From Pecten maximus (lineage: Eukaryota), in contig NC_047019.1 of NCBI RefSeq assembly GCF_902652985.1, positions 14,254,097 through 14,318,096 on the forward strand: 64,000 nt of DNA. Reading direction: 5' to 3'. Shown piece after piece: positions 18,201 through 63,037 of this stretch (its first letter is position 1; each line of letters opens with the position of its first letter). The notes under the pieces are model-generated. The model was not told the origin of the DNA, ran no database searches, and saw nothing but the letters and a program-made list of their open reading frames with translations. The position numbers and the translations under genes are program-made.

Positions 18201-20333
18201 TCTTATATAGCTAGGATTCCCTTGTTTGAAAAGTACTGGAGGGATGTCTCAATTTGCACAGATTAGTAAAATGAAGGGAAAAGTAGAGAAAAAATCAATC
18301 TGACATGGAACTTATGAAGATCATTCAATGGTGGGCGCCAAGATCCCTCTGGGATCTCTTGTTTTTCTGTTTAAATATGAAATCTAAGCGTTGTTCATCA
18401 TTTTAGGTTGCATTAAATCATTAAATTGAAGTCTATTAACATTACAAGCCTGTAATACAGATGTTTTGGGTTTATAGGTCACTGGATCCATGGCCGGTGT
18501 GGTGAAGTCTATGGAATCAGCAATGAAGAGTATGAATCTTGAGAAGGTAGGTTTATTTTTGTTCAAATGAAATTTTACAAGAATATTGTTGGCACTTGTA
18601 AAAAAAATTATAGATATACTTAACACTAAATATTTTCGCTACAGTCCATCCAGGATAGACGTCATGATCTCTGATTGGTCAATATTTAGACATTGAATTT
18701 TATGAAAATTTTTATGCATTTATATGGTGTATTTTGGGACTGTAAATAGTTGATTGGATGAGAAAGCAAATTCCTAGATATGTATCTGGCTATAAGCCCA
18801 TGTCTGCCTATAACAAACTACCAAATTTGATTAATGTTTATTGCATTTCAGTTAAAAAGCTTGTAGAAAATCAATGACATTTCATTGTCGAGCAATAAGC
18901 CCATTCTCTACCTCGAGTCCAAATTGATTTGTTAGTCACCTGGGCCTATCGCAGGATGACGTACAGTATTACGTTACAATTCAGTAGTGATGGGAATGAC
19001 ACCAGCTCAATGTGTGATGGTTCTAGTGTATTACCTGAAGTTATTTTGTCTTTAAAATGAAAATAAGATGTAGACATTACTTCTTTACAGATCTCACAGT
19101 TGATGGACAGGTTCGAACAACAGTTTGAGAATCTAGATGTGCAATCACAGGTGATGGAAGACACCATGAATGCATCGTCCACCCTTAACACACCTCAGAC
19201 GCAAGTGGAAGGACTGATGCAGGAGGTTGCTGACGAGGCTGGGTATGTACATCATCTTAGACTTGTTATATTTCCTAAAATAAACGGTAATCATGACGTT
19301 AAACATTTCTGTTAGGTTACTGGTCTACCTTTTATTTTGAGTTTTGATTGCATTATATATCAGTTCAGATGTGAAGTTGAGAGAAAGTCAAAAGACCGGT
19401 TAAACATACAGATTTAAGTGTGATTTTAACAAAGAATTAATATACATTTGTATTGAGCCATACATATTTAACATTAAAGACCATAGCTGTTGAAAGGTCA
19501 TTAAACAATACTATGCCAAACCTTAGGGCTATTCCAGCAAAATGCATACAGGTACCCTACGTGAGGACTCGAGAAAAAAACAAATTCTATACATGGTGGG
19601 TGTTGAAGAAAAGTGTGAGACAGTGGGAAGCAATCTTTAAATCTTGTTCTCATTAAATAAAATATGTGATTTGTGTTACAGTTTGGAATTAAACATGGAC
19701 CTTCCGTCAGCACAGTCATCCTTACCCTCTGGAGTAGCGTCATCAAATGCAAGTAGTGAGCAGGTAAGCTTGTGTGTAAATGGGCAGCATTATTACTGGA
19801 CAAGAACAGAAATTGTGGAGAAGAACTTGTATATATTTTGTTAAAATTTGCCTCTCATCCATTTTTCTGTTTTGACAATAAATTTCTTTAGATCAAATAA
19901 ACAAGTGGGTGTGTAAGAAATGGGGAAGTATCTATCATCTATTACTAGTTTTTAAAAGATTGGTCAGTTCTTGTTCTTATCATCTGTCTATTTTCTAAAT
20001 ATTGATTTATAAAATAACCTGGTTTAAAAAATACATTTTGGGGGCAAGAAACTTTGTTTGTGTTATTTTGGGGGATAGTTTATATCACTGATGCATTATT
20101 GAAAAATTGGTTTAGCAAATTTTCTTCATGAAAGTCTGATATAACATGTACTATTTCATAGCTTTTAAGTTTTTGTATCAGTATTTCTACCATACAATAC
20201 CACAACACAAAGAACTTTGCAGAAAAAATTCCTATTTCAATTTATTTGATGTAGTCTTTATCGATATAATAATAAATATGTTTCTTTTCTTTAGGATGAA
20301 CTTACACAGCGACTTGCAAAGTTACGGAATTGA
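12234..20333 (+). CDS. CHMP1: CHMP1 (charged multivesicular body protein 1, ESCRT-III). Complete gene with 7 coding exons plus a duplicated alternative exon 2
   Basis: Spliced translation MSMDKHLFNLKFAAKDLERNAKRSEKSEKEEKTKLKK|AIQKGNLEGARIHAENSIRQKNQALNYRRMSARIDGVAARVQTAVTMKQ|VTGSMAGVVKSMESAMKSMNLEK|ISQLMDRFEQQFENLDVQSQVMEDTMNASSTLNTPQTQVEGLMQEVADEAG|LELNMDLPSAQSSLPSGVASSNASSEQ|DELTQRLAKLRN*. This aligns along the CHMP1A/B proteins as I recall them. All junctions are GT/AG with consistent phases. Confidence 0.85.
13054..13151 (+). CDS. CHMP1: CHMP1 exon 2a (KHLFNLKFAAKDLERNAKRSEKSEKEEKTKLKK)
   Basis: Acceptor tatatag| and donor AAAAAG|gtaacc. It is 98 nt. Confidence 0.75.
13330..13700. repeat. 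Minisatellite with a unit of about 40 bp (atatggtaacaccacatggtcgtcatattaggtag), about 9 copies, in CHMP1 intron 2
   Basis: Direct tandem repeats are visible. Confidence 0.85.
13790..15060 (+). repeat. Satellite-carrying element. A 5' leader (hairpin ggtcacctgagacaaagtctcaagtgacc, then tattctaat, a (GTCC/CGTC)n microsatellite, then gtaaacaat) is followed by about 3.5 tandem copies of a roughly 316-bp unit
   Basis: Unit period measured between the gggcggggctaaaaagggtcaaatttactaaaacttcaa landmarks at 14049 and 14364. The same leader and unit family recur at 63296-64000. Minus ORFs 13915.., 14224.. and 14548.. are repeat translations. Confidence 0.8.
15480..15625 (+). mobile_element. tRNA-like SINE fragment of a different family (…GGTTCGATTCCTGTCAGGGCATTCAGCAGG…)
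   Basis: tRNA T-arm-like GGTTCGATTCC motif. It lies just upstream of CHMP1 exon 2b. Confidence 0.4.
15741..15838 (+). CDS. CHMP1: CHMP1 duplicated alternative exon 2b (QLFNLKYSARSLLRFANKCDKEERTEKRKLKK). Same length (98 nt) and phases as exon 2a
   Basis: Acceptor gtacag| and donor AAAAAG|gtgagt. It is a paralogue of exon 2a (LFNLKF/Y…KCDKEE…KLKK). Including both would shift the frame, which implies a mutually exclusive pair. Confidence 0.5.
16448..16594 (+). CDS. CHMP1: CHMP1 exon 3 (AIQKGNLEGARIHAENSIRQKNQALNYRRMSARIDGVAARVQTAVTMKQ)
   Basis: Acceptor ttgttacag| and donor AAACAG|gtatgc. It is 147 nt. Lies within ORF 16439..16627. Confidence 0.85.
16780..18360 (+). repeat. Satellite-carrying element of the pearl/Helentron-associated type. 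Leader (palindrome gcccaccatcatcagatggtgggc, then tattcaaatcgcc, then (CCGT)n, then gtaaacaat) followed by about 9 tandem copies of a roughly 155-bp unit, then a 3' tail
   Basis: Period measured between recurring acatggccgacaggcagccatcttggattttgacaattgaag at 16931, 17086 and 17241. A related leader plus a partial unit lies at 58950-60060. Minus ORFs 17515.., 17670.. and 17987.. are repeat translations. Confidence 0.8.
18478..18546 (+). CDS. CHMP1: CHMP1 exon 4 (VTGSMAGVVKSMESAMKSMNLEK)
   Basis: Acceptor tttatag| and donor GAGAAG|gtaggt. It is 69 nt. Confidence 0.85.
19091..19242 (+). CDS. CHMP1: CHMP1 exon 5 (ISQLMDRFEQQFENLDVQSQVMEDTMNASSTLNTPQTQVEGLMQEVADEAG)
   Basis: Acceptor ctttacag| and donor GCTGG|gtatgt. 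Lies within ORF 19100..19315. Confidence 0.85.
19682..19763 (+). CDS. CHMP1: CHMP1 exon 6 (LELNMDLPSAQSSLPSGVASSNASSEQ)
   Basis: Acceptor tgttacag| and donor GAGCAG|gtaagc. Lies within ORF 19644..19844. Confidence 0.8.
20295..20333 (+). CDS. CHMP1: CHMP1 terminal exon (DELTQRLAKLRN*)
   Basis: Acceptor ttctttag| and stop TGA at 20331-20333. Matches the CHMP1 C-terminal MIM motif (…DELSQRLARLR…). Confidence 0.8.
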   Translation, partial: DELTQRLAKLRN

Positions 20334-23300
20334 TTCACTTCAGTCATCTTCTTCATTGTGATAGTAAAATAGAAATTCTGACTTTTAAACGGACGCCTTA
20401 GCTTTGAATAGAAAAGTTTTATCTGTAAAAGAAAACCAGTCTTCACTCAGAGTCTATCATGATGACTGCCCTCCTCCTGTTTCTGTGAAGCACTGATGTC
20501 GCAGACTGAAACTTGCTGTTAAGATGAGGTGTAGCATGATTGTGTTGAATGAACTCGGACTATTAACCAAGCAGGCAATATTATTAAAGATAAGTCTGTA
20601 TGGAGAGAAGTTTGGTGCTCATTGTTTGGAGGAAGGAGTAGAACAAATGCACAAATTGTAAAATAATGCCCAGATTTTACTTGTATCTACGTCTAATTCA
20701 CTTTTAAGAATATTTTGCTGGTACAAACATTTGTGAAAAACCAGTGAAACAAAATTACCGAAATGGTAGTACACATGTATATGGTGTGTTAACATTAGGT
20801 AATCATTTTAGTGCTGTGTGAAAGATGCAACATGTACTTGTTTGTACATGTATGTGTATTACAATATACATTATTGTACATTGACATGTACTTACCTGTA
20901 TGTGTCAGGCGAAAAAGAACCATATCCTTTACCATATTTCATTCATTTATTTTAAAATTTTTCTTTTATGTGGGTATTAACTTATATCACCAATATTGTT
21001 CATTTGTATGTAATGTTCTTGACATGGTGAACCCACCAATGAGCAATGGTCAAAGGGAGATAATTAACTTTAGGGAAATGTTTGAAAATTCTGTTAATAT
21101 AGTATTATATATCATGATACAAATTGATATCAAAGTCGCATGTGTTTCACGAAAATTACTTAGTCAAGTGTTCTTTTTCTATACACCTTTATTGAAAGTT
21201 ATCCATCAATTTAGTTAAGTTCTACAAAATCTAATTACTACAAGCAATTAAAAAACAGAATCAATGTATTATAAAGTTTCCTGCAGGGATTTTAGTTTAA
21301 CTTTAATTTGCAGATTTCGTAAGTCAAAAAACATTTTTCAAGAAATTTCAAAGGGGTAAAATGTATGTATAAAAGGCCCTTTCAACTTCATGAGGTAGAA
21401 CTCTTTAGGAAGGCCATGCTGTCATTGATCTGATGGAAGCTCTTTAGCATACAATACAAATGTACATCTAATTGGTATAATATTGATGAATATTTATTGA
21501 TATAGTTTATCTTTAAGAATAATGTATGTACATTGTACACATAACCATTATTGTAATTTCTTACCTAAGTATATTAAGTTAATTCCTATGGATGTGACAG
21601 GTACTTGGTAATATATTCTGACAGGCATGTGGATATGTCTATGGTAGTGATAATTAAGTGATGATAGGCTGTTCAGTGGATGTGTATTAAGTGTGACAGG
21701 GATGTGCCACCTGCTGTCATGGCGATTTATGCTTTAATTGAATAGAGAAAAACCTATGTAATATTTTAAATCTGTAGCAAAATTTCTTATTGGATTAATA
21801 TATTCTGTAATGTAAATTTTGATTAAAAAACTAGTTTCAGTTTGAATTTCTGTTACAAACTGCTGTGTAATATTCAATAACAGGGATATACCTAACACCA
21901 ACTTTCTGAATTATTAATAGTTTTCGCAATTCAAGGGATAAAACCTCAAGGATATTGTATTCCTGGAACTTCAGGATGTAACAATAAGAATTTCTGTATT
22001 CTTTTTTTTACTGTTATTCAGTTTATTGAAATCATACATACAGATGTGTATGTAGTAAACTATGTATTATAGATTAATAAAATTGTTGAATAAATCTTGA
22101 TCCAAACGTAATTAGTGTTGAATTTTCAATACGTTCTGTCAAGTTTGTGTAATTGATAAGATATATTGATAAAACATGTATTAAGCAAAATGTTTAAATT
22201 GACATGTCGAAAGCTAGATATATATGATAAGTTTGTAACAAGTGTAGGTTACCTTGTAGCTGGTAGTTTAAATTAATATGACTTATCTATTGTTCTTGTG
22301 TTGGGTGATCATTATTCTTCATTCCTGTTGACTTGTGACATTTGCATATATATATCTAAACAGGAACTTTCAAACTAGAGACTGGTATTCTTGTCTTTAT
22401 TGGAGTTCTACCAGTTTTGCTAGACCATTGGGCCTCTTCTGAACACTTTGATAACAAATTTTTTTATCTTAATTGCTAAAATTATGGGCATGTGTTTATA
22501 GTGACATAATACAATGGACTGTTGTTAACATACTAGATAGCTTTATATAGAGGTGATAATTACACTACAAATTGTATCCATCACATTAATAAATTTAGAA
22601 ATATTCATATTTCATATCACACCGGTATGTATAATCATAATAAATTAAACAATCCATGATCCGTACAGATGTACTTCAATAGGGTTTCTAGACATGCAGT
22701 AGACAGAGCTTGACTCTGATTCATATATAAAGTGTCTGTAATTAACTTCACTGTTGATAGGAATAAAAAGTGAATATGTGAGTGATAAAGTTTGGTGATA
22801 ATTATTTGTGGCTTAGTGGAAGGAGGCAAGTGCCAATATAGAATGCAGCCAAATGAAGAAAATGTCTCCAATATATCTCCACATTATAGTTGCATTGTCT
22901 TTCTCTATTCCTTCTGCTAATTTATAATGTGGTAATTCTTTCTGGCAAGTAGTTCTACAGTAATATGGTGCAGTTTCATATGGCAATCTTCCCAGGCAAT
23001 GCCAAATATGGTATACCTGCAACACTGCTCTTGCATAAGGAATTCCAGTAAAATCCAGCAAAGTTACACCTAAAACTCGAACTCTCGCTCTAACCGACAG
23101 GAGTAGATTAAGGTGTACCTCGCTCCTGTGAAGGCCGGAGTGGTCTGCACATTTTACCTAAATGTGACCATAATAATTGGCGACAAGTAAATATTGACCT
23201 TGTTTAATTTAGATATATATATACAAAATGTATATATAGGCATGACAGGAGTCTCTAGATTGGTGTACCCATCTGCTGTAGATAATGGGATTGAGATGTG

Positions 23301-25546: not shown

Positions 25547-28500
25547 GTATGTAATCTTAAAAGCATGTGATCATGGCAGAGTACAGGTACCGAAGTACCA
25601 AAATTTGTAAACCGTGCATTTATAATACTTAATCTAATGTACCTGATAATTTCTAAATACTTAAAATCATACTGAATCTTATGCCCTGCCCGACTAGTTA
25701 ACAGAATATCTGTTTGTAAGGTGTGTGCCCATGCATATATATTTATCATCTTTTTAAGAATTTTTAATTTTAGAAAATTGGAATTCTAACTTCACACATA
25801 TCTGCTTCATATTTAGACATACATATGTAATTTTATTGAATAGATTGATGCTTGTTTATGGCATATATACTGTCTTTTAATAAAACCATTTGACATAAAA
25901 CATATCTTAATCTGAGCAAGTAAATGTCTCCAGTTTAAAATTGTTTTTGTATATTAAACACTTCCAACAAACAGAATTGTATTATTTTTTTTTTGCAATA
26001 ATTGAATATTTAGTTATTGAGAAATTTGATAAAAGCCTTAATAAAGTGGTATAGATGAATTAAGGGTTAGTAATACAATATGATAAATCAACGTTCCCAT
26101 TACAACTTAAAGATCATGATAGACATTTTAAAAATAAAACCGCATTTGTTTTCCCAGAGTACTCATGTCATATGTAACGACCCTGCTAAAGCAGACATCA
26201 GCTACAAGTGTAAGATGGCACAGAAGTATGGCATCCCTGTTGTGTCAGTCAGCTTCCTGTATGACTGCGTTGAGAAAGGGAGACTACTCAGTACTGACGA
26301 TTACCTGGTTGTTGGCAAAACAAGGTCTCAGAAACTTGGCTCTGGTAGAATTGCAGGTAAAGAAATATATCACAATCATTTATGATAATACATTGTTCCT
26401 TGAAACCTTGCATATATAATTAGTCCCCTGCCGTTTGAAAAACGGGGGGACTATAGGTTTACCCTCCGTCCGTCCGTCTGTCTGGCCGTCTGTCTGTCTG
26501 TCTGTCACGCAATAGTTGTCCGGACAACTCCTTCTAAAGTACTACTCCGATTTTAACTAAACTTGGTATACATGATTAGTATAACATGTAGTTGTGCATC
26601 CCACAATTTTTTTTTCTTCGAAAAACCGATTTTCAAAATGGCCGCCGGCTTCTCATTGGTTGAGGCTTGTCCGGACAACTCCTCCTAAAACTACTCCGAT
26701 TTTAACACAACTTGGTATGCATGATCAGTATAACATGTAGTTAAAGCAATGGGAAATAAATAGGTGCACTCCTAGGTCAGGCAGGGGACTTTGTATTGCT
26801 GTTGCAATACTATCCATCCTTGTTATATATATATATGAAGTGATAGGATGCTTATTGAACAGACTACTTTGAGATAATTCTGGATACAGTATTTCATTTT
26901 TATTCTTCGTGTAAGTTATGTAGTATGTTTGGCTGTATCTGAAAACTGTAATTAACAAGCAACTTCATTTCTTGAAACATCTTGCATATTTCTTAGGTTA
27001 TTTAAAAAGCAAATCTCTTTAAAATTAAGCTAAGGATTTGAGAAATTGCAGGAGCATGGGGAATATTTGATATATTTTCCTCTTATTATACACCTTTCAG
27101 ACAGTAGCAAGTACAAGGTACCAATTCTGGTTGAATTTATTTCACAGAGATCATGAAAAAAATGATAAATTGATTGTTTTTCAAATATCAGATCTGCGGT
27201 AAATATGCAATAAGTGACCCTGGGATGAATATATTCATTGTTTCAGCTACAAAGTACCAGATCCTTGGAAAGAGGAAGAAGTCCTCCTTCTATCCTGGAG
27301 GAGTGAAAGCATGGCCACTACAGGAAAAACATACCCCTATATTTAACAGTACCAAATACCAGGTGGCAAAATATGCAGTATTGAAGGTAAGGACACTGGG
27401 ATGTTTATTATAAGTCCCATTCTTCACAGCAGACTTTGTCACGATCTAGGGCATGCAAATATCACATACCTGAGCATGTACTGAAGAATCAATCTATAGA
27501 CCAATTAAGTACAAGCAGAATATTTCCAGTTGTCTTATTTAACAGGTTTTACATCCACTTGTCGGCCACATTCTCCTTTAATTTAAGGGTATAGAGGGCA
27601 TGTTTGCTAACTGTTTGAAATTTCCTTTTGCCTGGGCAGGGTTGGGATGGGAGTGGATGACATCAGAAAAGAACCTTTATAGACATCTTTCGGAATACAT
27701 AAATATTTCATATTTGTTACTGCTCTTTTTCCAGTATCAGTTGGATTGTTTAAGGATTAACTTGACGTGTTAAGGTGATTTAACACAAAAAGCAGTGTGC
27801 TGTTAATAAACAGCAAAGTGATTGATGATGAGAATACAATCCAGCTTGTTATTATTACTCAAAGTAAAATAAAAAACTATATACATGTTAATCCTTATAT
27901 TAATTTGATTATACACAATCCCTATGGAAATCCACTTTTATTGATGGACTCTTATAAATTATGCCACTGTATAATAGGCCAGTATAAAGCGACTTTACAA
28001 ATATCTTGGACTGATAACATAAATTCTAAGCCAATGAAAATGCATGTTGTATACAAAATCAGATTCTAAGCCAATGAAATTTAATGCTTGTTGTACAAAA
28101 TTATAAGAAACAGATTAAAATTTTTACAGATAGCCTGTATTTAATTAAGTTTGGTCCAAGAATCATGAGTCTAACTCTGAAACATGATGGGTTATGCAAG
28201 TATTATTCTAAAGAGGATTTTCACCAAAATATTGACAGTTGCCACAAATTTAACTACATCTGAACTCATATTACACATGAAAATATGACACTTTTTGTTG
28301 AAGTAATTTTTGTAGATGAAAAATTTCTTCAGTTCAATCTTGGTTTTATTGTTTCAGAAATATGTGAAGAGTGCCGGAAGAACGTTTTTCTGTGTGCTGG
28401 AGGTTCATGTCACTGAGGAACGTGACCTTCTGCCTGGACAAATCTACAGATTCAGGGTGTCGAAGCACCATGGCAACCTTAAAAACATCCAGGTATATGA

Positions 28501-31500: not shown

Positions 31501-34500
31501 AATTCTTTGTCTCTGTAATGAATAACAAGTAAGCTTTTTGTTTTATTATTAATAATAGTTTGTAAATGCTTGCATTAGTCATACATGAATGTTTAAAATT
31601 AAAGAAATTATTCTTATAAATACTAGTTTTAACATCAAGCATGCTTTGAATTGTAACTCTTCTAGCTGATCAAATATTGGTTCTAAAAAGATTGTAATTA
31701 CCTTCAATTGAGTTGGTACAGTAAAACCGTGAAGTCATGGGATCATGAAAAACTTTTGAGTTTCAATGTAGATGTTTTGGTATTAACGGGGTCTTCAACT
31801 TATCCGAGTTTGAGTTAACAAAGTTGAATGTATGTAGTATAAGTTCTGCGTTTATATCCCTCAAAATTGTTTGTAGTTAATTAAAAGTACAGTTTTATAC
31901 AAGATATGAAAAGCTTCTGTTACATTCTGTTACAACAAAATTTTTTAAATGTTTACTGATTTTTTTTAGGAGTACCAGACTGAACATCGTGAACGTGTTT
32001 GAGGTACAGAGACAGATGGAGGAGGATAACTTTACCGATGAGATCTACGGTCAGACACTTTTGTTTCACGCCTCCAAACCCAACAACTTTGTTGGGATCC
32101 TGTCCAGGTAATGACCTACAAACATTTCACTGTCACTTACCCATGATAAAAACCCCAGGGAGTCAGTGTGCTTACCCATGATAAAAACCCCAGGGAGTCA
32201 GTGTGCTTACCCATGATAAAAACCCCAGGGAGTGTATATATGGTCCTTGAATTAATGTGATGGTAAGAACATAGTAGTCTTTTCTTATAAACACAGGTGG
32301 TTTTATCACAATCATTAATGTGCAGCGCCACACACCAGCAGAAAAGTTACTCTGACCCATATAGGTATTAAATTGGCTGATTTACATTTTATGAAACTAA
32401 ATGATAATGGATCGATTAAAATTGTCTATGCTGAACCAGATATCTGTGCATTATCTTCCACAATCCGAAGAAAAGACTGATAATGGGCAAGTGACAGCGG
32501 ACAACAACTGTCCAGTCTCTGTGGCCAAATCCATCACAACAACGGACAACCGTTTATAGGACACAGTAGATCCGGTAAATAATGTCGAACTGCAGCAGTG
32601 TCGAGAAGAAAATCCTGTACTAATAGACTCTGATGTAGAGGGCGCTGATGATGGTCCCTGTTACCTACCGAAATTTCTCTGCCCAAGTTCCAATCCTATA
32701 TGCTGAAGTGCATGAAATGCTGTTGTAAAAAAACTGCTAAGAATGCAAGTTGTTTGTTCCTCATACAATATGTGATGATTACATTGGGTTCCCTAGGGGT
32801 CTACTGATGCCAAAGATGGTTGTGGACGACTTCGGAGGGAAGAGGACAGATGCTGGAATGTTGGGAGCAGGCATCTACTTTGCGAGTGCTGCCAGGTAAG
32901 TGTGTACAGGTAAAATGGAGTTGTAAGTGTATACAGGTAACAAGTAAAAGGGAATTAGGTTTTAGAGAGGTAAACATGAAAAGGAATAACATGTGCTAGC
33001 ACTTGATACAACGTATCAAAAAACAATAACATTTTGATTTTAGGATTTTCATCTCTAGCGATGAATGGTTATTTAGAATTGACCCTAATTGAGAATTTAC
33101 CTTCTCACAAAAATCTGAAATACAATACAGCTACAAACCTCATTGTTTATCTGCAGTAATATATGAACTACTAATTATTGACTTTGACAAACTTATTTGT
33201 GAACTATTTTAAGAAGGTATTCTTGACGTCACTACAGTATCCATGGGAACATACATTAAGTAATTAGCATAATTACTGCAAATAAGCCCTTGCCACAAAT
33301 AAGCCCCCTTCTTCATTTTTACAGAATCATCAATTTTGAAATAAGTAAGCCAAAATTTGTTCACAAATAAGCCCTCCCCGAACTTTTATGACCTAACTTT
33401 TTCTTGACTAGGGGAGGAGAATCATTTGAGGACATACACAGTATATACAAATTTTACATCTTTCCAGTACGAGTGTTAAGTACTCACAGGTCAGTAAGAG
33501 TCGGGGTACGAGGATGATGCTGGTTAATAAGGTGGCTCTGGGTAAATGTATGGACCTGTATAAACACGACCAGACACTCACCAAGGCTCCAGACGGTTAC
33601 TTCAGTGTCCACGGTGTGGCAAAGACATCGAACAAACCATCAGACTTCACGGTAAGGCGTTGCCACGATTTACATTTCATCAAGGTACAAACTTACTGAT
33701 GGAAGCTATATATGTATGTAGCCTTTATTATGTAGACAGTGGAGCTAGGGAGGTTCAGACTCCATACTTTCTTTACATCCGATAAAATTTCAAATCTGGT
33801 AATTTTGGTAGAATGATAGAACACTTCCCATTGTTAACCGACCCCCAAGACATTTCTTCAAGGTTTCAATTATGTCTTAGTGAGATGCATTTGTTGAACA
33901 TTGGTACGTTTTTTGTTTTTTTTTTAATTTTTCAAATCGGTCAACATTTGTACAGTGGAGAATAGCCTTACTAACCATTTTTAGATATTCCTCTCCCCAC
34001 TCCAATAAACACATATTTTTCATGTGTTGAATAAAAATATGAAAGAACAAAATTGATTCTGATTTTTCATCTTCTCTCAAAAAGTTGGAGATCATACAAA
34101 GAATTTTCATTCACACAATTATGCCATTTCTTGTAGAGCATACCTCAAACATTGTTAGTGATTTTGTTGGTTCTGTAGGAGGATGAGTATGTAGTGTACT
34201 CGCCAGACCAACAGAAGATGTGCTACCTGGTGGAGTTTACTGTTGGTAGTGAGATACCTAAACCAATGGACATTGTACCAACAGAGGACGCCATGGATAT
34301 GAACACCCAAGCTACATTTGACAAAATCAGTAAGTTTTTAATCTTAATTGTAAAGAGACTGATTATTTAAAAGGTATTTTCATTTACTCACGAATTAATT
34401 TTATTTTCACCAATTGTTTTTGTCTAGAAAATCAAGAAATTTGTTTGTTAGTACAAAGTTAAACTTTGCATTAACAAAGAAATTTTCTTGATTTTAGATG

Positions 34501-37500
34501 TCTTAGATATACATAAATTGTTACTGACAAGTCAGTGTAATGATTTCCTGCCTTTGAAATGGAATTTCACAACTGAAAAGGTAAACTTTTGAACAGAAAC
34601 AAATTATTTTGGAAACTGTGATGGATTCTTATTATATCTTTTATACAAATCTGGAAAATACATGACATTCATGATCAGTCAATTGTTACACTATCACGAC
34701 TTGAGATTTTGAAATATGACCTTTACCTTTTAGACAAGGTCACCCTCCTCTGCTGAAGAAGAAACAAAATGATAGAGTATAACCTTGACATTTTACAAGA
34801 AAGTCATAAACTTGTACCTTGTAAAGCATTTTACAAATTATGACAAAAAAACAAAACAAAAAGCATTATAATTTTGAAATAATATTAAACCAGTGTATTA
34901 TGTTATATAAACTACATGTTTTAGATCTAAAAGATGTGAAAGATGTATTGGACCCCATGTCAAAGGTCAAATCGGGACTGGTGGCTGATGGGAAGGAAGT
35001 TAATCCTGTGGAACTAGAGGATGTAAATGTATTTGCTAAAATGATGGATCTTGTGGCAGAGGTAATCAATTTTTATGACAAATGATTGTGTAAACTGGTG
35101 TTATTATAACGAGAAAAGAAAAAAAAAATTTCTTGTTAATATTTTATATGCATTTGACAACTGATTAAAAAATGAAAATTCCATGCAACTAAACATTTCC
35201 CCTCTATATGATCTAATAATTCTGGGTTTTAGAAAGTTATAATGATAAATCAATTCTACTATTGATTAGTGTTATCTGGTATCATATAAAATGGAGTGGT
35301 GACCTTGACATTTTAGACAAGGTCACTCCCCTCTGCTGAAGAAATTGATATCAGAGTATAACCTTACATTTTAGGAGAAAGTCATAAACCTGTATAGTAA
35401 CTAATATGTGGTAATTAAAAGATCATTTAAATTTCACAGAATTTTCATGGAAATTAAATAAAATAACTACCTGAGATTTTGAAATATGACCTTGACCTTT
35501 TTCAGGTGAAGGTCTTACAAGTTTACCACAACAAGAGTAACGAAATGTTGGAGGGGAAGTATGTGTTCCCTCTAGACGAGATGGCCGCAGTGTGTGGGTT
35601 TGAAGCTTACATCAATGACAAGCATGTGGTAGGGGAGGTGAAGGAAAAAGAGACGGCACACAAGGAGTACAAGAAGGCCATTAGTGAGGGCCATGGAGCC
35701 TACCTCATGGACCAGGACGAAGAATCACCGGTATGTTTAAAACTTAAGCAGTTTCATATTAAAGAAGTTATGAAGTATCATTTCAGTGGCAAATTCTGGC
35801 AACAATATGTCGTCTGATAAAATTGGAAATGGTTTCTTTTGCCTTAGATTAATTTTTGAGCATATTTACATTTTGCAAGACTTTGTCTGGTTTTCTTTTG
35901 TTGTTTTTTTCGTTTTTTTTTTTTTTTCAATAAATAAATTTAAACCAAATGTGTATAAGATGGCACTTTCTTTACTGTATAGGGATGTATTTATGTCCCC
36001 ACCATGAAATAAGAGGGCATATACGTAGTGTTACCCATGTCCGTCCCGTCCCGATGTAAACTGTAACTAGCTATTCTCAGGAACTGCTGATGTGATGCTA
36101 ACCAAACTTTGTATATATAATGGGTATAATGTCGTGTTGTCCACCTAACCAAACTTTGTATATATAATGAGTATAATGTCGTGTTGTCCACCTAACCAAA
36201 CTTTGTATATATAATGAGTATAATGTTGTGTTGTCCATGTAACTCTTTATTCACGGATCAAACATCCAATACATCTGACATTGTTGTGTTTCGGGGTGTT
36301 TATTGGCAATATATCTTCTAATAGATTTTTACTTTGGATCTTACTTTTAATTACCATTGATAAGTAAAGAGTTCTTAATAATCTACCTTATACAAAATGT
36401 GAATGAGGAAGTTTTGATGTAAAGCAGTATTTCAGATGAAGTATTTGATAAATATAGATGATGGATTAGAATTGATGTCCTATATATATTGATATCTATA
36501 ACAATATATCTGTGTTATTTTGTAACCTTCACCTCTGATGTCCTATATATATTGATATCTATAACAATATATCTGTGTTATTTTGTAACCTTCACCTCTG
36601 ATGTCCTATTTATATCTATAACAATATATCTGTGTTATTTTGTAACCTTCACCTCTGATGGCCAATATTATTATATATTGATATTTATAACAATATATCT
36701 GTGTTATTTTGTAACCTTCACCTCTGATGTCCTATATATATTGATATCTATAACAATATATCTGTGTTATTTTGTAACCTACACCTCTGATGTCCTATTG
36801 ATATTGATATCTATAACAATATATCTGTGTTATTTTGTAACCTTCACCTCTGATGTCCTATTTATATCTATAACAATATATCTGTGTTATTTTGTAACCT
36901 TCACCTCTGATGTCCTATATATATTGATATCTATAACAATATATCTGTGTTATTTTGTAACCTTCACCTCTGATGACCTATTGATATCTATAACAATATA
37001 TCTGTGTTATTTTGTAACCTTCACCTCTGATGTCCTATATACAGTCAAACCTCGATGATTCGAACTTCGTTGATTCGAATTTCTCGCTGTATCGAACTTT
37101 TTGCTTGGTCCCGAATTTTCTCACTATATAACACTACTAACGAAACTATGTATGATTCGAATTTTTATAAATCGAAGTTTTCGATGTATCGAACTTTTTT
37201 CATGACCCGTTAGCTATGATATTATAGGTAATTGACATCTCATGATTCGAACAAAAAATTTACCTGTACTGACCACTGGACAGGTGTTTGTCGTGACCCC
37301 TGCGGCAAGATTTCACACCTCTCCCCCAAATGCCCTGACTGACAATAGGGATAACGATAGCGTGTGTTGTCACTCCCGGTCATGGGGTTTATTAATAATC
37401 AGATCAAATTGATAGATAAAAAGTGTATTTAGAAGCCATGACATTTAATCGCTCCGGTAAAACATTTCGGTAGTCGTCTCTGATCATCTCCGCCGCCATT

Positions 37501-40500
37501 GAAATCAGCGTTCGGTGAGTAAATTTTACGGAACTATAAAACAACCGGACCATTTTTAAACACGAACAATTAGCGATGGCTTCACTCATATTCAAAGTGT
37601 GACGTTTCAAACTTATACATAAATATCCAAGTAAATCGATTATTTGTCATTCAATCATGCATTCTCCAACCGATCGGCATTCCGTATTTTATATGCACAT
37701 AACGTAAACGCACGTGTCTTTAGCAGAAAAGCCTAACGACTTACGTAAGTGTGCATTGTACTTCTTTTGTTTTATCTGTTAAACGCGATATAAGTGTTTT
37801 GTAACCGATACATATTCTGTTTAATTATCAAGAAAACATCGATCTATTGTCAACCATGAATAATTCGAAGTCCCGCTGTATCGAAGTTTTTCTGTTAGTC
37901 CCTTGAACTTCGAAACATCGAAGTTTGACTGTATATTGATATCTATAACAATATATCTGTGTTATTTTGTAACCTTCACCTCTGATGTCCAATATTATTA
38001 TATATTGATATCTATAACAAAATGTCTGTGTTATTTTGTAACCTTCACCTCTGATGTCCTATTGATATCTATAACAATATATCTGTGTTATTTTGTAACC
38101 TTCACCTCTGATATCCTATTTATATCTATAACAATATATCTGTGTTATTCTATAACAATATATCTGTGTTATTTTGTAACCTTCACCTCTGATGTCCTAT
38201 ATATATTTATATCTATAACAATATATCTGTGTTATTTTGTAACCTTCACCTCTGATGTCCTATATATATTGATATCTATAACAATATATCTGTGTTATTT
38301 TGTAACCTTCACCTCTGATGTCCTGTATATATTGATATCTATAACAATATATCTGTGTTATTTTGTAACCTACACCTCTGATGTCCTATTGATATCTATA
38401 ACAATATATCTGTGTTATTTTGTAACCTTCACCTCTGATGTCCTATATATATTGATATCTATAACAATATATCTGTGTTATTTTGTAACCTTCACCTCTG
38501 ATGTCCTATAATGAAGCTTATGTATATAAGCTAAGTTTAAACTGACAAATCATAAGTCTATGTTTATTAATTCATATATTAATAAACCTTGATCTTTATA
38601 ATTATCAAGAAGTACTTGTGAGGCATATTGACTTATTCAGAGTGATACAATATAGATAGGCCCAAGTAGGGCCAGTTTGTTGACGGTTATGATATATACA
38701 GTATCGGGGCCGGGCAGGCCTAGGTCAATAAGTGATTTGATTGGTCAACAGAATTTGGCAAGCATCTTTTGTTTTAGTGGGGAATGGCTAACGCAGCGTT
38801 TTAATCAGCAATTTATAACCACTCATCTACAACATCTACGAATTTAAATCATGGATATTTCTTACGGTACAAGACTTCAGCATTTGAGATTCTCTCTATT
38901 TGAGAAGTTTGCAGACTGTGGATTGTTTTAATAGCAGTTGCTGAAACCACTTTTGTTCGGACCCTTTCCCCCCCGAGACCCGAGACGATGGCATCGACAA
39001 GGCAGGACAATACTTCATCCAGCAAACGCAGGAACCGATCTAATAATACGCCTTGGGACTCTAACAACCCAAAAAATTGGACTATCCAAAGACTAAAAAG
39101 TGAACTGGAAAATTTAGGAATTCACGGCTCATTCATGGGTATGACCAAAACGGCATTACGCAATCTCTACTTGGACAATGTGAATAGAGGAACCCAATCA
39201 ACGAACTATGAAATATTACCTCGTGTGAATAATGCTTCCGAGGAAGATCTTGGTAATAATGAGACTGACGATTTACCGTCAAGTAGTGCTTCACAACATA
39301 ATTCTAATGTGACCGAGGAACTACGTGCAGAAGCGGACCAAATCGCACAGTCATCCCAGTCAGGTAGTGATCAGTCGGCCCGTGCAACATCCCCGCCTGG
39401 TGGCGATAGCAGCAGCACAACGCGTAGGGATATTTCCAATATGGCGGCGCCCATGACAGATGTGCAAAATTTACAAAAAACGGTCATCGAGCTGCAACAA
39501 ACTGTGATTTCGATGATGAATGGCAGGAATACAAACCGTGAAATCACCAGTGGACATGCTTCCTCAGGATTTACATTATCTACAGCTATGGCGGCGATGA
39601 GGAACAATGAATGCGATAGCAACAGGATCTCTGCCACGTCAATGAATCCAGGTGGGTACAGTCTACCTCGTTCAAAATATGGCGTACCCGCCGAATGTAT
39701 TCCACATGTCGATGTCGTATCGGAGAACACACAAAGGAAGATATGGGAAGGTAGAGATATCAATCTAGCTAGCCTGTTAATTCCCTGTTTTGAGACGTGT
39801 CGGAATGCCGGTGACGATTTCGGGGGGTTACATGGTATTACTATAAACATAAATCAGAATGAAGATCGGGATCCACGCCTGAATAAAGCTTTGAGCATAG
39901 CAGAGTTCATTACTGCGTTTGGAAAATACAAAAGAGTACTGTGTACAAAATTCCCGGACCGCAGACCAGAATTAGACACATACGAGGCTAACATTATAGA
40001 AATTTCGAATATTTATGGCCCTCGTTTCTACGATTACCATTGCCAATTTTCTGCAAGGGCAGCAGCAGCATTGAGGGATAACAACATTAAAGTAGATTGG
40101 GCAGTGAAAGACAATGGCCTACTGAATATGGTTATTGGTAATACCAAAGCCAATACTTGCAATTTGTGTGGGTTGACTACTCATTCAACACCCTTCTGTC
40201 CACAACAGCGTAACAAATCGTGGAATAACAACAAACAGCAACAAGGGCGAAAGGATGTGGATAAGCATGGCCGTCCTAAAATCAAAGTCAATGGCCAAGA
40301 AGTTTGTAACAATTTCAACAACGGTAAATGCACACGGGGAGACAATTGTTTCTTTGCACACGTGTGTTCCAATTGTCAAGCCAACAACCATGGAGCTAAT
40401 GCGTGTAAGAAAAACAAACAACAATGACAAACGGTTATGCCTGACAGGCCCTCTACACCTTTAAACATTGAGAGGTTAGCCGAAGAATTACAGAACCATC

Positions 40501-43500
40501 CCGACAGGCATTTCGTGGACTATTTAATAGAAGGACTTAAGCAAGGTTTTGATACAAAGGTGTCAACTACCTCTCTTCCCACTAAGGAATGTAAGAACTT
40601 ACAATCTGCCAACAATAATGCTGCCATAGTAGATACTCTTATTTCCTCCGAGTTAGAGAAAGGGTTTTTATGTGGACCATTCCAACGACTTCCATTTGAG
40701 CATTACAGAGTCAGCCCCATTGGAGTTGCTATTGGGAAATACTCAAAGAAACCTCGATTGATCGTGGATCTATCTTCCCCTCATGAAGATACTGATCATC
40801 CATCCATCAATGAACTTATCGACAAAGAACAATGTTCATTAAGCTATGTTAAGATAGACGATGCGGTTAATATAATTCAATCATTAGGAAGAAATACTAC
40901 AATGTGTAAAACTGATATATCAGACGCGTTCAAACTGATACCTATTCATCCTAGTCAGTGGCATTTATTTTGTGTTCAGTGGAAGGGAAGCTATTATTTT
41001 TATAACAAGCTAGCATTCGGGTGCAGATCAAGCCCTAAGATTTTTGACACCCTATCAGAAGCCGTGTGTTGGATAGCACAGCACAATTACGGAATTTCCC
41101 ACATCATGCATTTGTTAGACGATTTCATCACTTTCGATGGCCCAGGCGTATGTGGGGAACGCAACATGGCTCTACTTTACCTGATTTTCAACAGATTAAA
41201 TATTCCCATGGCCAAACACAAAACTTGTGGACCAGAAACTGTCATAGAGTATTTGGGTATTATTTTGGATTCTATCAATATGGAGGCACGGTTACCAGTG
41301 GACAAATTGGTAAGAATTACAGAATTCTTGACTGACTTCCTAAGTAAGTCATCGTGTACCAAGAGGGAGATGCTACAATTGCTTGGTCACCTCAACTTTG
41401 CAAGTAGAGTCGTGATACCCGGTAGAGCATTCGTTTCCCACCTGATTCGATGTTCTACCACAGTTAAACACCTTCATCATTATATCAGGATAAACAATGA
41501 TTGTAGAGAGGATATTAGAATGTGGAGGCAATTCTTACTACATTGGAATGGTGTGTCTATGTTCTATAATACGCGAGTTATAACTTCTGATGACTTGCGT
41601 CTGTTCACAGATGCATCAGGTACTCGTGGATTTGGCGGTATATTTCAACAAGAGTGGTTCGCTGAACCATGGCCTACAAGTCTACGTGAATCGGTGTCGC
41701 AAGTAGATGAATTATCTATCGCGTTTAAGGAACTTTATCCGATTGTGGTAGCAGCATTATTGTGGGGTCACAAATGGGTTGGCCAGCGTATCGTATTTAT
41801 GTGTGATAACTCTGCTACAGTGGCTATTCTTCAGAAAGGCCGCTCCAAATCAGCTCACATTATGCCACTTATGAGAAGACTAACTTTGTGTGCTGCCACT
41901 CATAATTTCTGCATATTATCTAAACATGTCCCAGGTAGACACAATGTGATTGCTGATTCTCTGTCTCGATTACAGTTGCAGAAATTTCGACACCTGGTTC
42001 CAACAGCCTGCAAGTACCCACGCACAGTTCCAGCTCCAGCACACATCTTGTGGAGCTCCAGCCTGTAATTAAGGAGTTGTGGGATTCCGCGATAGCTCCC
42101 AGCACCAGATCGACGTATCAGACAGGTTTCAACTTGTTTATTAGATTCCTTCTAATGACAGGTGTTATAGTGTGTGCAAGTGCAGTTAAAGACATTCGTG
42201 TGACAGAAGACTTGTTGATTTATTTTGCCGCGAATTGCTTCACTAATAACTTATCTTACAGTACAGTTAAACTATATATTTGTGGCATTCGTTTCATGTG
42301 TCTTCAACAGAACATTAGTTATCCAGTCGGAACAGACTTGCCTCGTCTTTTTTCCATCATGAATGGTATCAAAAGATCACAAGCTAAGCCTGTCAAACCA
42401 CGTTACCCTGTTACATTTACGATTTTGAAACAAGTTTGTGACTTCTTGAGGAAGAACAATGGGAATTTCAACGATTTGTTATTGGAAACGGTGTGTACAG
42501 TTGCATTTTTTGGTTTCCTTAGATGTGGGGAGTTCACTGTAAATAACAATTTTGACTCTACTATTCATTTGTGCATGAAAGACTTAACCATTTTACAAGA
42601 TTGTGTGGTGTTGACACTGAAGTCGTCAAAAACTGACCCCTTCAGGAAAGGTATAGCCATTAAATTGTTCAAAATTGATCATGATATTTGCCCACATAAG
42701 GTGTGTAGCAAGTATGTCGCAGCAAGACTCATCATTTGTCATGGTCCGTCTCCAGCAGATCCTTTGCTTGTGACTCGAGATGGCAATGCTTTATCACGTT
42801 ATACCTTTATTAATATGTTTAAGCACACTCTAAAATGTGTAGGTATTGACCCAACAAATTATAATGGGCATTCATTCAGGATTGGCGCAGCTACTTCTGT
42901 GGCTGCTGTCAGCATAGAAGATCATATGATCAAAGTTTTAGGAAGATGGTCATCTGATGCCTACTGCAGATACATCAGAACGCCACAGGATGCCATTAGG
43001 CAAGCTCAGAAATCTATGGTATTGGCTAAAGGTAATGTTAATTAGGGTATAGCTTAACAATATATAGCTTATACCCCTAATTTACCTATAACATTTACTA
43101 ATATTTTTGGGGCACTCAGTTCAATTCAGTATCATTTAACTGAGTCTTGGACTCTCATTCAAAATTTTAATAGATTCAATTTTTCTTTTCATCCCCAAAA
43201 AATTATACTTGAGAAATCTTTACATTATATTGCAAGTATTATATTGTTATCATACTATTCCTACTGCTTTTTGCTGATGTATCATCCGAGGTACATAGGT
43301 GGAGAATAAGGAATTCATTTACAAATTAAGTTACATATTAATTATTACTTAAATCTTATTCGGAAGTATGTACATGCGTGTAGCTCAGCAAGCTACAACG
43401 AATGAGATTTAGGTATATTGTTTTCAACCTGCTCAAAGTCAGTTTTTTGGAACTCACCATTCCTTATTCGGACCTGTAGCTCAGCAAGCTTCACCGAGAT

Positions 43501-46500
43501 GAGGAATAGTATAAACGGGATGAATTATATTATCTTACTGCTGTATGACTGATTCCGCATCCAGACCTGGTAGCTCAGCAAGCTACCCTGTGATGGGGAA
43601 TTCGGCTCAATCCTAGTTAAGTTCAGATGTGGTCCTCTTCTGCATTCATATACTCATCAGTATAATCTAGCCAAGTACTGTTCATCCTCTCATATTGTTG
43701 ACGGTCTGCTAGACTCTTAGATGAGGACTCATACTGGACTCTAAACTATCTTTCTCCTGGGTGTCAGTTACCATTTTTTATACATGTATTTATCGTTCAA
43801 TCCAGGAGAAAGATATTTAGTTGTTATAATATATATATAGTAACTGAGTTGCCCTTTTTGCCAAACAATATATATGTAATAAGTTTAATAATATGTTCTG
43901 TTTGTTAAATGGAAATTGTCAAGTTCAGTCATGTTTTATGCATACAATAAATGTATATATGTTTATATCTGTCTTTTTGTGATTTGTGCAGTTTAAAATG
44001 AAGCTTATGTATATAAGCTAAGTTTAAACTGACAAATCATAAGTCTATGTTTATTAATTCATATATTAATAAACCTTGATCTTTATAATTATCAAGAAGT
44101 ACTTGTGAGGCATATTGACTTATTCAGAGTGATACAATATAGATAGGCCCAAGTAGGGCCAGTTTGTTTACGGTTATGATATATACAGTATCGGGGCCGG
44201 GCAGGCCTAGGTCAATAAGTGATTTGATTGGTCAACAGAATTTGGCAAGCATCTTTTGTTTTAGTGGGGAATGGCTAACGCAGCGTTTTAATCAGCAACC
44301 ACCACCATCCCCTGCCACCAACCAGATTTTTAACTACCGGTTTTAATTAACCTTTTCAGTGGCATGGGCATTGGAAGCGAGAGATAGTTAAAGCTTTATA
44401 CATGTTACATGATGATGTTTTCTATCTAGATATATGACACTCTTAACTATGGTGTTTTGTTTTGTTTGGTTCTTGGAGCAGTTACGATGTTAATAAATTT
44501 GGGACTTTTATGCTCATTCAATTGATGACTGAACTCTCATTCAAAATGTAATGATTCAATTTTCTTTCTCCCCAAAAATTTACTGAGAAATCTTACACTA
44601 TATGCTAGATTATATTGTTTTCTTCCCACGCTTTTCTGAGTGTATCATCCAGTACAGGTGCAGTTAGGTCATTTAAATTATTCATATTTTTACTTAACAT
44701 TTTTGGAAGTCATGTACATGCGTGTAGCTCAGCAAGCTACAAAATGAGATTGGGTATTGTTTTCAACTGCTCAAGTCAGTTTTTGGAATCCACATTTTAT
44801 TCGTGTACCACACTTTTACAAAATGAGATTTTTATAAAAGATACTTAAAAATTGTTTCTGTTTCCGCATCAATGGGAAATCCCGTGATGGGGAATTGGCT
44901 CTTCCCATTGTTGTTGGTCTGGTTCCTCCGGTACTCGTTTCTCCATAACCTCCCATTTTAAAGGTCCGGGGGGTTAATAGGATTAAGGGAAAAAAAAATT
45001 TTTCCCTTTTGTCATAAAAGTTTTATACTTCAAAAGGAAAAAATTTTTGTATTTTTATTGAAATAATTTCTTTTCAAAAATATTCTTTTTAAGTTAATAT
45101 ATTTAAATTTTTTTGAATTTTAAATTCAACATGTTTTTGCTTTTAAGTTTATTCAGTTCTTTTTTTTGTGATTTAAATTTTTACAAAATTGTGTTTTTTT
45201 TAATTTCGAGCGTTTAAAAAGAATTTAAAAAAGTGTTAATTTGAAAATTACCGGGGAAATTTCAAAAAGGGGGGGGAACAATTTTTTTCAAAAATGTAAT
45301 TGGGGGTTTTTTTCCCCGGGATATTTTAAAAATTTGGAAAGGGTTTTTTTGGGGGTTTTTTTTTTGGAAAAAAAGGGGAATTTTGGGGGGGGAAAAAAAC
45401 CCATAAATAAGGGAAAAACCTTTCCCTTTTAAAAATGGATTTTTAAAATTTTTTAAAAAAAAGTTTGTAACCTTCACCTCTGATGTCCTATTTATATCTA
45501 TAACAATATATCTGTGTTACTTTGTAACCTTCACCTCTGATGTCCTATTGACATCTATAACAATATATCTGTGTTATTTTGTAACTTTCACCTCTGATGT
45601 CCTATTGACAGGATGTTTTTACTGTAAGTGTGGGGAATGTTCCTGCCAAAGCTACTGTTGTCATCAAGATCACCTATGTCACAGAGCTGCAGGTTGAAGG
45701 TGACCTTGTCAGCTTCCGTCTCCCAGGCACCTTAGCACCATGGAAACAGAACTCTCAGAACACTGAGGTAATTATACAACCAAACCATAAAAAAATACTC
45801 TTGAAAGGAAAAATCACAGATAAAAATTCCATTGTGAAAACTGGACAGTTTGTCAACCCTTAACTGTGAACAAATTGTATCATCTCTATGACAATACATG
45901 ATTGTGTAAGGGAGACTGGACTGATGTTATAAAGAATTTTATCATGATTTTATGAGGAAAATTAACAGGTAATATGTATGTTACTACAACTGTTACAATT
46001 GACTATACAGTGAAACCTGTCTATACCAACCACTGCCTTGAATGACTTTCTGTAACATCCAACCATTGTCAACAGTGGCAAAATGCTCAACTGTCATGGC
46101 TGATACTATATTGTCTCTCTGTTATATCTGACACGTTTACTCAGTCCTGTACACGTTCAGTTAGGTCAGGTCTCTCTATACATGTATCCTTATTTTCTAC
46201 ACAGGATATCGAATGCACTGTCATGGTAGCTGTGGACATGCCCTTTGACCTCAAAAATATCCACAGCCCAACTCACAAAATTATGATTGCGGTATGTATA
46301 TAAACCTACTTATATGTTTATGTTCAGTTCTTCATTCCTTGGAAATCGATTCCGACATGTTTGGTTACTGTGATATTCCAACACTTAAATCACTATAAAT
46401 TATGACCTTTTTTTTCAAAAGAAATGAAAACAGATAACCAAAAAGATTGATTTCTAGCTTTTGAGCCATTACAATATGGAATATTCATGTAGGTGTGCAG

Positions 46501-60060: not shown

Positions 60061-60469
60061 TAGTTTGAAGTGTGATTGGAGGTTAAAATGAAGTGTTACT
60101 AGGCCCTCTCTATGTTGTCTAATTGGTGTGGATGTTCAAAGAAACAGAATCTAAGTTCACATTGAATTCCCCCACTGTATAATGCATTAGGAGCAGGTGA
60201 TAAGGTAAAGGAGGATGTGGAGAATGTAGCAACTTCAAAGTCAGCATATGTAGAGGTACAACAGTGTTTGTTGATGAAGCGTTTACAATGTGGTCTCTGT
60301 AATATTATTGCATAATTTCAAATGACATAAAAAATTATGGTGACATATCCATCCGTATGTGATATTTCTTTAGACCAATACCTTGAGAGTGCCGTCATCT
60401 TTCTTCATGAGAAGGGTGACATGGAAAGGGCACATTGCCATTTATTTCTTCCTCTGTGCTGTTATCATT

Positions 60470-61440
60470 GGTTTGATATGTTCTCACCTTCTGAGGTCCT
60501 TCCCTGACCTACATTGTATACGTGGTTTGATGTGTTCTCACCTTCTGAGGTCCTTCCCTGACCTACATTGTATACGTGGTTTGATGTGTTCTCACCTTCT
60601 GAGGTCCTTCCCTGACCTACATTGTATACGTGGTTTGATGTGTTCTCACCGTCTGAGGTCCTTCCCTGACCTACATTGTATACGTGGTTTGATGTGTTCT
60701 CACCTTCTGAGGTCCTTCCCTGACCTACATTGTATACGTGGTTTGATGTGTTCTCACCGTCTGAGGTCCTTCCCTGACCTACATTGTATACGTGGTTTGA
60801 TGTGTTCTCACCTTCTGAGGTCCTTCCCTGACCTACATTGTATACGTGGTTTGATGTGTTCTCACCTTCTGAGGTCCTTCCCTGACCTACATTGTATACG
60901 TGGTTTGATGTGTTCTCACCTTCTGAGGTCCTTCCCTGACCTACATTGTATACGTGGTTTGATGTGTTCTCACCGTCTGAGGTCCTTCCCTGACCTACAT
61001 TGTATACGTGGTTTGATGTGTTCTCACCGTCTGAGGTCCTTCCCTGACCTACATTGTATACGTGGTTTGATGTGTTCTCACCTTCTGAGGTCCTTCCCTG
61101 ACCTACATTGTATACGTGGTTTGATGTGTTCTCACCGTCTGAGGTCCTTCCCTGACCTACATTGTATACGTGGTTTGATGTGTTCTCACCTTCTGAGGTC
61201 CTTCCCTGACCTACATTGTATACGTGGTTTGATGTGTTCTCACCTTCTGAGGTCCTTCCCTGACCTACATTGTATACGTGGTTTGATGTGTTCTCACCGT
61301 CTGAGGTCCTTCCCTGACCTACATTGTATACGTGGTTTGATGTGTTCTCACCTTCTGAGGTCCTTCCCTGACCTACATTGTATACGTGGTTTGATGTGTT
61401 CTCACCTTCTGAGGTCCTTCCCTGACCTACATTGTATACG
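60470..61440. repeat. Satellite with a 54-bp unit, about 18 copies (ctacattgtatacgtggtttgatgtgttctcacc(t/g)tctgaggtccttccctgac), with two alternating variants
   Basis: ORF 60383..61519 (378 aa of MCSHLLRSFPDLHCIRGL repeats) is a repeat translation. The unit is a multiple of 3, so the frame stays open. Confidence 0.9.
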
Positions 61441-61499
61441 TGTGTTCCTAATGTGTGTCATCAATGTTCCACAAACAAAGGGACAGCAGGCAATAATCA

Positions 61500-62880
61500 T
61501 CCAAATATTACATAAATAACTTGACCACAGTATGAGGTGCTGGGCTGCCAATAAATAATTTGACCACAATATGAAGTGCTGGGTTGCCAATAAATAATTT
61601 GACCACAATATGAAGTGCTGGGTTGCCAATAAATTATTTGACCACAATATGAGGTGCTGGGTTGCCAATAAATAACTTGACCACAGTATGAGGTGCTGGG
61701 CTGCCAATAAATAATTTGACCACAGTATGAGGTGCTGGGTTGCCAATAAATAATTTGACCACAATATGAAGTGCTGGGTTGCCAATAAATAATTTGACCA
61801 CAATATGAGGTGCTGGGTTGCCAATAAATAATTTGACCACAGTATGAGGTGCTGGGTTGCCAATAAATTATTTGACCACAATATGAGGTGCTGGGTTGCC
61901 AATAAATAATTTGACCACAGTATGAGGTGCTGGGCTGCCAATAAATAATTTGACCACAATATGAGGTGCTGGGCTGCCAATAAATAATTTGACCACAATA
62001 TGAGGGGCTGGGTTGCCAATACATTATTTGACCACAATATGAGGTGCTGGGCTGCCAATAAATAATTTGACCACAGTATGAGGTGCTGGGCTGCCAATAA
62101 ATAATTTGACCACAATATGAGGTGCTGGGTTGCCAATAAATAATTTGACCACAGTATGAGGTGCTGGGCTGCCAATAAATAATTTGACCACAGTATGAGG
62201 TGCTGGGCTGCCAATAAATAATTTGACCACAATATGAAGTGCTGGGTTGCCAATAAATAACTTGACCACAGTATGAGGTGCTGGGTTGCCAATAAATAAC
62301 TCGACCACAATATGAAGTGCTGGGCTGCCAATAATTAATTTGACCACAGTATGAGGTGCTGGGCTGCCAATAAATAATTTGACCACAATATGAAGTGCTG
62401 GGTTGCCAATAAATAATTTGACCACAGTATGAGGTGCTGGGCTGCCAATAATTAATTTGACCACAGTATGAGGTGCTGGGCTGCCAATAAATAATTCGAC
62501 TACAGTATGAGGTGCTGGGCTGCCAATAAATAATTTTACCACAGTACGAGGTGCTGGGCTGCCAATAAATAATTTGACCACAGTATGAGGTGCTGGCCAT
62601 GGGCTGCCAATAAATAATTTCATCAGAGTATGAGGTGCTGGGCTGCCAATAATTAATTTGACCACAGTATGAGCTGCTGGGCTGCCAATAAATAAATTGA
62701 CCGCATAATGAAGTGCTGGGTTGCCAATAAATATTTTGACCACAGTATGAGGTGCTAGACTGCCAATAAATAATTTGACCACAGTATGAGGTGCTGGGCT
62801 GCCAATAAGTAATTTGACCACAGTATGAGGTGCTGGGCTGCCAATAAATAATTTGACCACAGTATGAGGTACTTGGCTGC
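61500..62880. repeat. Satellite with a 39-bp unit, about 35 copies (aataaataatttgaccacagtatgaggtgctgggctgcc)
   Basis: The minus ORFs 61402..62331, 61497..62600, 61634..61840 and 62024..62860 are all repeat translations. Confidence 0.9.
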
Positions 62881-63037
62881 CAATACCTGTGCTGAAACTT
62901 TATGGACAGACAGTATCTTAAAAAGTGAAATATGTTGGTGTCTACACAAATTGTAGAATATCCCTGAAGTTTTAGATTTGGAGGTCTGTTCTTACAATTT
63001 CTACAATAAGATCTATCTCACTCTATATTACTTTTAG

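Follow-up and report, generated by a model that had tools for sequence, protein, structure and literature searches.

Why should a retrotransposon whose three open reading frames are intact and whose A repeats are almost the same end in a second B repeat that is a poor copy of the first, and then in half a kilobase of single-base runs? The question is raised by an element in the window, by which we mean the whole 64,000-nt stretch of bivalve DNA analysed here, with a G+C content of about 35%. Here the element is set against its own repeats, its relatives in public genomes and the satellite in which it lies.

The host locus and the inserted element

The anomalous interval sits in one of the introns of a PARP4-like host gene. 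Both the satellite and the retrotransposon lie within that intron, upstream of the exon at 45612-45768. The features of the host locus are these:

26074-26382: BRCT exon of the PARP4-like gene
33430-33696: PARP catalytic exon of the same gene
35467-35814: VIT exon of the same gene
36420-38509, plus strand: host 57/63-bp satellite to the left of the element, in blocks 36420-37100 and 37873-38509
45464-45610, plus strand: clean satellite to the right of the element, 2.6 units that share 92-96% identity with those on the left
45612-45768, plus strand: VIT-domain exon of the PARP4-like gene

The left satellite is interrupted after ...GATGTCCTAT, and the last satellite unit on the right supplies the splice acceptor of the VIT-domain exon (ttgacag/GATG, 45596-45612). 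A listing of stop-free frames points to further long tandem arrays, repetitive in translation, at 1-612, 4684-5297 and 60374-63017. A protein search with the host exons found no near-identical protein.

The inserted element is 6.95 kb long (38510-45463) and is made up as follows:

38510-38811, plus strand: A1, the 5' terminal repeat, starting AATGAAGCTTATG (the repeat alignment runs from 38507)
38988-40427, plus strand: gag-like ORF of 479 aa, intact, containing a CCCH zinc finger
40437-42068, plus strand: reverse transcriptase (RT) ORF, 543 aa, intact, with RVT_1 (PF00078) at residues 102-276
42050-43045, plus strand: tyrosine recombinase (YR) ORF, 331 aa, intact, PF00589
43095-43996, plus strand: B1, the internal copy of repeat B, abutting A2 and ending ...GTGCAGTTTAAA
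43997-44298, plus strand: A2, the internal copy of A (repeat alignment from 43994)
44299-44494, plus strand: spacer X between A2 and B2, about 196 bp, with no homology to B1
44495-44950, plus strand: proximal part of B2, with clear B1 homology and 10-25% of bases missing
44951-45180, plus strand: distal part of B2, within the run-rich block, collinear with the last 300 nt or so of B1
45181-45270, plus strand: probably about 1.5 units of the host satellite, poorly read, with two (T)GTGTT landmarks
45271-45463, plus strand: unrecognisable run-rich tail, mean run length 2.6-5.0, matching neither B1 nor the satellite

The RVT_1 match in the second ORF has E = 5e-8 in Pfam. The Phage_integrase match in the third (E = 3.6e-4) is weaker than Pfam's cut-off; this ORF has 940 bivalve homologues at E <= 1e-20, several of them with PF00589, the closest being 74% identical and from Mizuhopecten yessoensis. 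RVT_1 was the only Pfam match in the 543-aa pol ORF, and in this general Pfam search no methyltransferase domain was detected. About 270 aa follow the RT domain, which is space for an RNase H and hardly for a methyltransferase, and the C-terminal part of the ORF is presumed to be RNase H. It is the absence of a methyltransferase that separates Ngaro from DIRS1 and PAT elements. The definition of a Ngaro element (PMC4157794) is that it has split direct repeats ordered A1-B1-A2-B2, that the internal ones follow YR, and that a methyltransferase domain is lacking. As in that definition, the gag-like, RT and YR ORFs of the window element all have one orientation, B1-A2 lies 3' of the YR stop codon and A2 repeats A1. 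It differs in that a spacer, X, stands between A2 and B2, as it does in this scallop family, and in that B2 repeats B1 at only 77-79% and then fades, which we attribute to sequence error. On its domain content and repeat order we class the element as a Ngaro-type tyrosine-recombinase retrotransposon.

A1 and A2 had been described as essentially identical, and they are: 38507-38811 and 43994-44298 align over 305 bp at 99.3% identity with no gaps, and A2 carries one real mismatch to A1. Since the A repeats are so alike and the three ORFs are intact, the copy is apparently young. Insertion without target-site duplication is expected of a Ngaro-type element; of the two junctions in the window, the left is clear and the right unreadable. 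Exact look-ups of all three ORFs found no second copy of the locus or of the exact element, and two metagenome scans, with the end of B and the start of A as queries, gave no matches.

Layout of the family in other genomes

Relatives for comparison were taken from public scallop genomes (L001, L002 and L003), together with a Saccostrea element (L004) in which no usable A/B repeats were found. L002 and L003 are both from Argopecten irradians, the former in GCA_041381155.1, and on the sequences of these two elements the layout of the family is read as A1-ORFs-B1-A2-X-B2 and not as plain A1-B1-A2-B2. In L003, identity between A1 and A2 is 99.6%, A2 follows B1 directly, and B2 (767 bp) is 99.87% identical to B1 without a single gap. 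L002 has the same layout. Its B1 (13219-13935) and B2 (14632-15354) are separated by 16 gap events and 2 mismatches, 12 of the 16 being extra bases in B2, mostly one nucleotide in a short run. Neighbouring copies at the same locus (8702-12669 against 18099-22073) are separated by 17 gap events and 7 mismatches, again of the 1-nt homopolymer type, and some of these indels fall inside ORFs. The pattern in L002 looks like a local consensus error in that public assembly. Given the clean layout of the family and the youth of the copy, the poor B2 of the window is anomalous.

The Mizuhopecten relative L001 (NEDP02001613, 7518-12996) consists of A-ORFs-B only, lacking A2-X-B2. It is about 73% identical to the window element at the nucleotide level, runs from AATGAAGC to CAGTTTAAA and is inserted cleanly into a tandem repeat, with neither target duplication nor deletion. 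Such a unit may be either the product of recombination between B1 and B2 or an integrated unit-length circle. The start of A1, AATGAAGCTTATG, is found in this relative also, and B1 of the window is conserved over its whole length with the Mizuhopecten B, so far as can be judged looking like sequence of good quality. B1 contains three hairpin-forming motifs, GTAGCTCAGCAAGCT(AC), at 43380-43394, 43476-43490 and 43570-43584. Related versions of the motif are present in the Mizuhopecten B region.

Spacer X is 64 bp long in L003 (14375-14438) and 428 bp in L002 (14204-14631), which sets the Argopecten range at 64-428 bp. In the window it opens with the conserved motif CCACCATCCCCTGCCAC at 44302-44318. 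The motif, CCACCATCCCC(T)GCCAC, is 16-17 nt long and stands immediately after A2 in each of the three elements with split repeats (window 44302-44318, L002 14207-14222, L003 14379-14394). It occurs once in each element and is absent from the rest of the window, where none would be expected by chance, and might serve in priming or recombination. Beyond it, the three spacers have nothing in common. Because the start of X is shared with the Argopecten elements, at least 44299-44323 is genuine. The accuracy of X can be verified over these first 25 nt or so only, and doubt may possibly reach back to 44299.

Divergence of B2 from B1

The sequence-only reading had placed B2 directly after A2, had ended it at about 44930 and had put its identity to B1 at about 80% with many small indels. 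The last of these statements holds, whereas both boundaries have to be moved: B1 homology begins after spacer X, at about 44495, and continues through the first 230 nt or so of the run-rich block.

A BLAST alignment of 44514-44804 with 43132-43471 gives 76.5% identity and 53 gap columns, and in a Smith-Waterman alignment identity is 78.9%, mismatches number 17 and gap events 37. In 34 of these 37 events it is B2 that lacks the bases. Genuine divergence of B has another character: between B1 of the window and the Mizuhopecten B, which are 70% identical, there are 124 mismatches and 69 gap events, and the gaps are split 35:34 between the two sides. The contrast is significant both in the dominance of indels (Fisher p = 2e-5) and in their one-sided direction (binomial p = 1e-7). 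As written, B2 has 686 nt against the 902 nt of B1, and the proportion of B1 bases missing from it rises from 16% in the proximal part to 29% in the distal part. The losses show no strong base-specific bias, and no base is lost preferentially. A 40-nt core around the first hairpin is perfectly conserved, and that hairpin motif (44724-44738) is the only one of the three that can still be read in B2.

Successive 70-nt segments of B2 match B1 with z scores that fall from 25 to 16, 9.5, 6.5 and about 3-4, and then to 0. Their best matches track the B1 diagonal as far as its final base, 45130-45199 matching 43930-43996, and three of five non-overlapping segments lie within 8 nt of the position predicted from B1, against a chance rate of 0.09. 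The last base of B1 is reached at about 45178-45185, where GTGATTTAAA stands against GTGCAGTTTAAA. This distal homology was missed by a three-way MAFFT alignment and was recovered by segment-wise local alignment. Since collinearity extends to the last base of B1, the end of B2 falls within the run-rich block, at about 45180.

The run-rich block and the seam

Measured per 50 nt, mean run length exceeds 2 from 44950 onwards, peaks at 5.0 at 45350 and stays raised until 45463. Across the window, means over 200 nt have their median at 1.40 and their 99th percentile at 1.74, and in the block they reach 3.33; nine 200-nt segments exceed 2.0, all nine of them in the block, and none does so in 64 kb of three related scallop loci. 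Runs of at least 4 nt number 97 per kb in the block compared with 20 per kb elsewhere. Between 44300 and 45449 run length increases with position (Spearman rho 0.80, p = 5e-6), while control stretches average 0.05.

The runs had been noticed before and had been taken for bases expanded in place, with no repeat unit. The runs are real, and Tandem Repeats Finder detects no tandem array between 38514 and 45464; the expansion does not stand. When its homopolymers are compressed, the block matches nothing in the window or in distal B1 (compared by BLAST, Smith-Waterman and longest common subsequence; z = 0.4, 0.1 and -0.7, with proximal B as a control at z = 17). This comparison, with the shortfall of B2, indicates that the runs substitute for real bases, which have been lost and not stretched.

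Beyond the end of B2, the segment 45165-45270 resembles 1.5 satellite units at p < 1/2000 when judged by run-preserving shuffles and at about 0.18 when judged against natural AT-rich segments. The match is at most suggestive of damage that crosses the boundary between element and host into the satellite. If the satellite spill is correct, a process specific to the element is an unfit explanation, as none would damage the host flank. For the tail, a search for satellite periodicity (autocorrelation at lags of 57 and 63, and ungapped phase matching) gave z scores of at most about 2-2.8 and was unconvincing. At the seam, 45463/45464, the change to clean satellite is sudden: it starts with TTTGTAACC, in a phase shifted by about 31-37 nt from that of the left break. 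Outside the interval the window is accurate, with no indels in A, intact ORFs and a regular satellite, so the problem is a local one.

Origin of the anomalous interval

Everything between about 44495 (the start may lie as early as 44299) and 45463 is very probably a technical artefact, a single-pass patch of low accuracy in an otherwise accurate assembly. The anomaly is local, its error spectrum is dominated by indels in one direction, its fidelity decays from 5' to 3', it remains collinear with B1 and it stops at an abrupt seam. These features, together with the clean B2 of L003, bear out the earlier attribution of the interval to uncorrected or gap-fill sequence and not to biology, and the run-filled 0.5 kb in particular is almost certainly a quality problem.

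As to the sequencing technology and the assembly step, we infer a course of events along the following lines. The true sequence would be A2 and X, next a B2 that matches B1 almost perfectly over about 900 bp, and then satellite units. Within the element A and B occur twice each, and a tandem satellite flanks it, so that every piece would be repeated; accurate reads could not be placed uniquely, the contig would break or leave a gap after A2, and polishing would fail there. A single bridging read of low accuracy, for instance a gap-fill read left unpolished or a low-quality read tail left untrimmed, would then lose fidelity toward its 3' end, at first dropping bases (16%, then 29%) and later giving same-base runs in place of real sequence, and at 45463/45464 this patch would have been butted against the good contig that follows.

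Scallop draft genomes have been made in which gaps in Illumina scaffolds were filled with PacBio reads by PBJelly and the result was polished with Pilon (PMC5905365). Such drafts may be regarded, by analogy, as a precedent for the patch in the window. The interval resembles a gap-fill patch in being an island of indel errors and same-base runs in accurate sequence, in lying exactly where repeats bar the unique placement of accurate reads, and in its one-way decay of fidelity with abrupt recovery at the seam. It differs in carrying no N-gap or case marking, and the loss of 16-29% of bases with long runs is unlike the standard profile of either PacBio CLR or nanopore reads. PacBio CLR errors are rich in insertions and nanopore errors shorten runs. 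The pattern may resemble the low-resolution tail of a capillary read, although the distance of the block from the start of such a read would be unusually large.

Some of the evidence weighs against an artefact. The change from no gaps in A2 to about 16% of bases missing in B2 takes place within 200 nt, which is too abrupt for the decay of a single read and needs a change of coverage near A2 and X. The combination of base loss and run richness fits no single platform's textbook error profile. The last 190 nt or so, being unmatched, offer no positive evidence for or against.

It is unlikely that the sequence is real and that a young element lies beside, or has recombined into, the decayed 3' end left by an older relative; in that case B2 would be a truly diverged and internally deleted B and the tail natural low-complexity DNA. 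Tyrosine-recombinase retrotransposons do insert into one another, the 40-nt core at the first hairpin is perfectly kept in B2, and the start of X, being shared with the Argopecten elements, is genuine over 44299-44323 at least, all of which would suit such an origin. However, the adjoining A2 is too close to A1 to be old, and neither the ratio of gaps to substitutions (37:17) nor their direction (34:3) is like real divergence of B. Natural decay should be uniform, whereas a gradient from 5' to 3' is seen, and mean runs of 3-5 in all four bases are unique in about 128 kb of bivalve sequence. Nor did a tblastn comparison of 44299-45463 with 239 related proteins find any coding remnant of an older element.

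It is very improbable that the base-depleted, run-rich B2 and its flank are real products of slipping or non-templated synthesis by the element's RT, or of repair at integration. If they were, they would represent a mutational signature undescribed for tyrosine-recombinase retrotransposons. The differences between B1 and B2 in L002, which lie almost only in short runs, give the appearance of a family trait, but the neighbouring copies in L002 differ in the same way even within ORFs (17 gaps against 7 mismatches) and B2 of L003 is clean. In the window, moreover, bases have been lost and not duplicated, and the damage appears to extend into the host satellite, suggestive only as that is. Finally, it is just as improbable that the block is unrelated DNA, from a chimeric read or a contaminant, mis-joined between element and satellite: the compressed block matches nothing in the window and the join at 45463/45464 is abrupt, but the uncompressed 70-nt segments follow B1 collinearly until it ends, at about 45180, so that the first 230 nt or so of the block (44950-45180) come from their own locus and mis-joined DNA is excluded there.

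Implications for the element and its family

The significance of the artefact is practical only. The underlying element is an ordinary Ngaro-type retrotransposon. The sequence-only reading had held the boundaries of the element, B2 and the 3' junction to be unreliable. Its caution is warranted for 44495-45463, where neither the bases nor their number nor the 3' junction deserve trust; the end of the element can still be placed at about 45180. The interval is unfit for defining the boundaries of transposable elements, for dating the insertion from B1 and B2 and for analysis of the target site, and it is equally unfit for counting satellite copies or for measuring the intron of the PARP4-like gene. 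A consensus of the family should take B from B1 (43095-43996) and put the end of the element at about 45180. Assembly and polishing can be expected to falter at elements with split direct repeats that lie in satellites.
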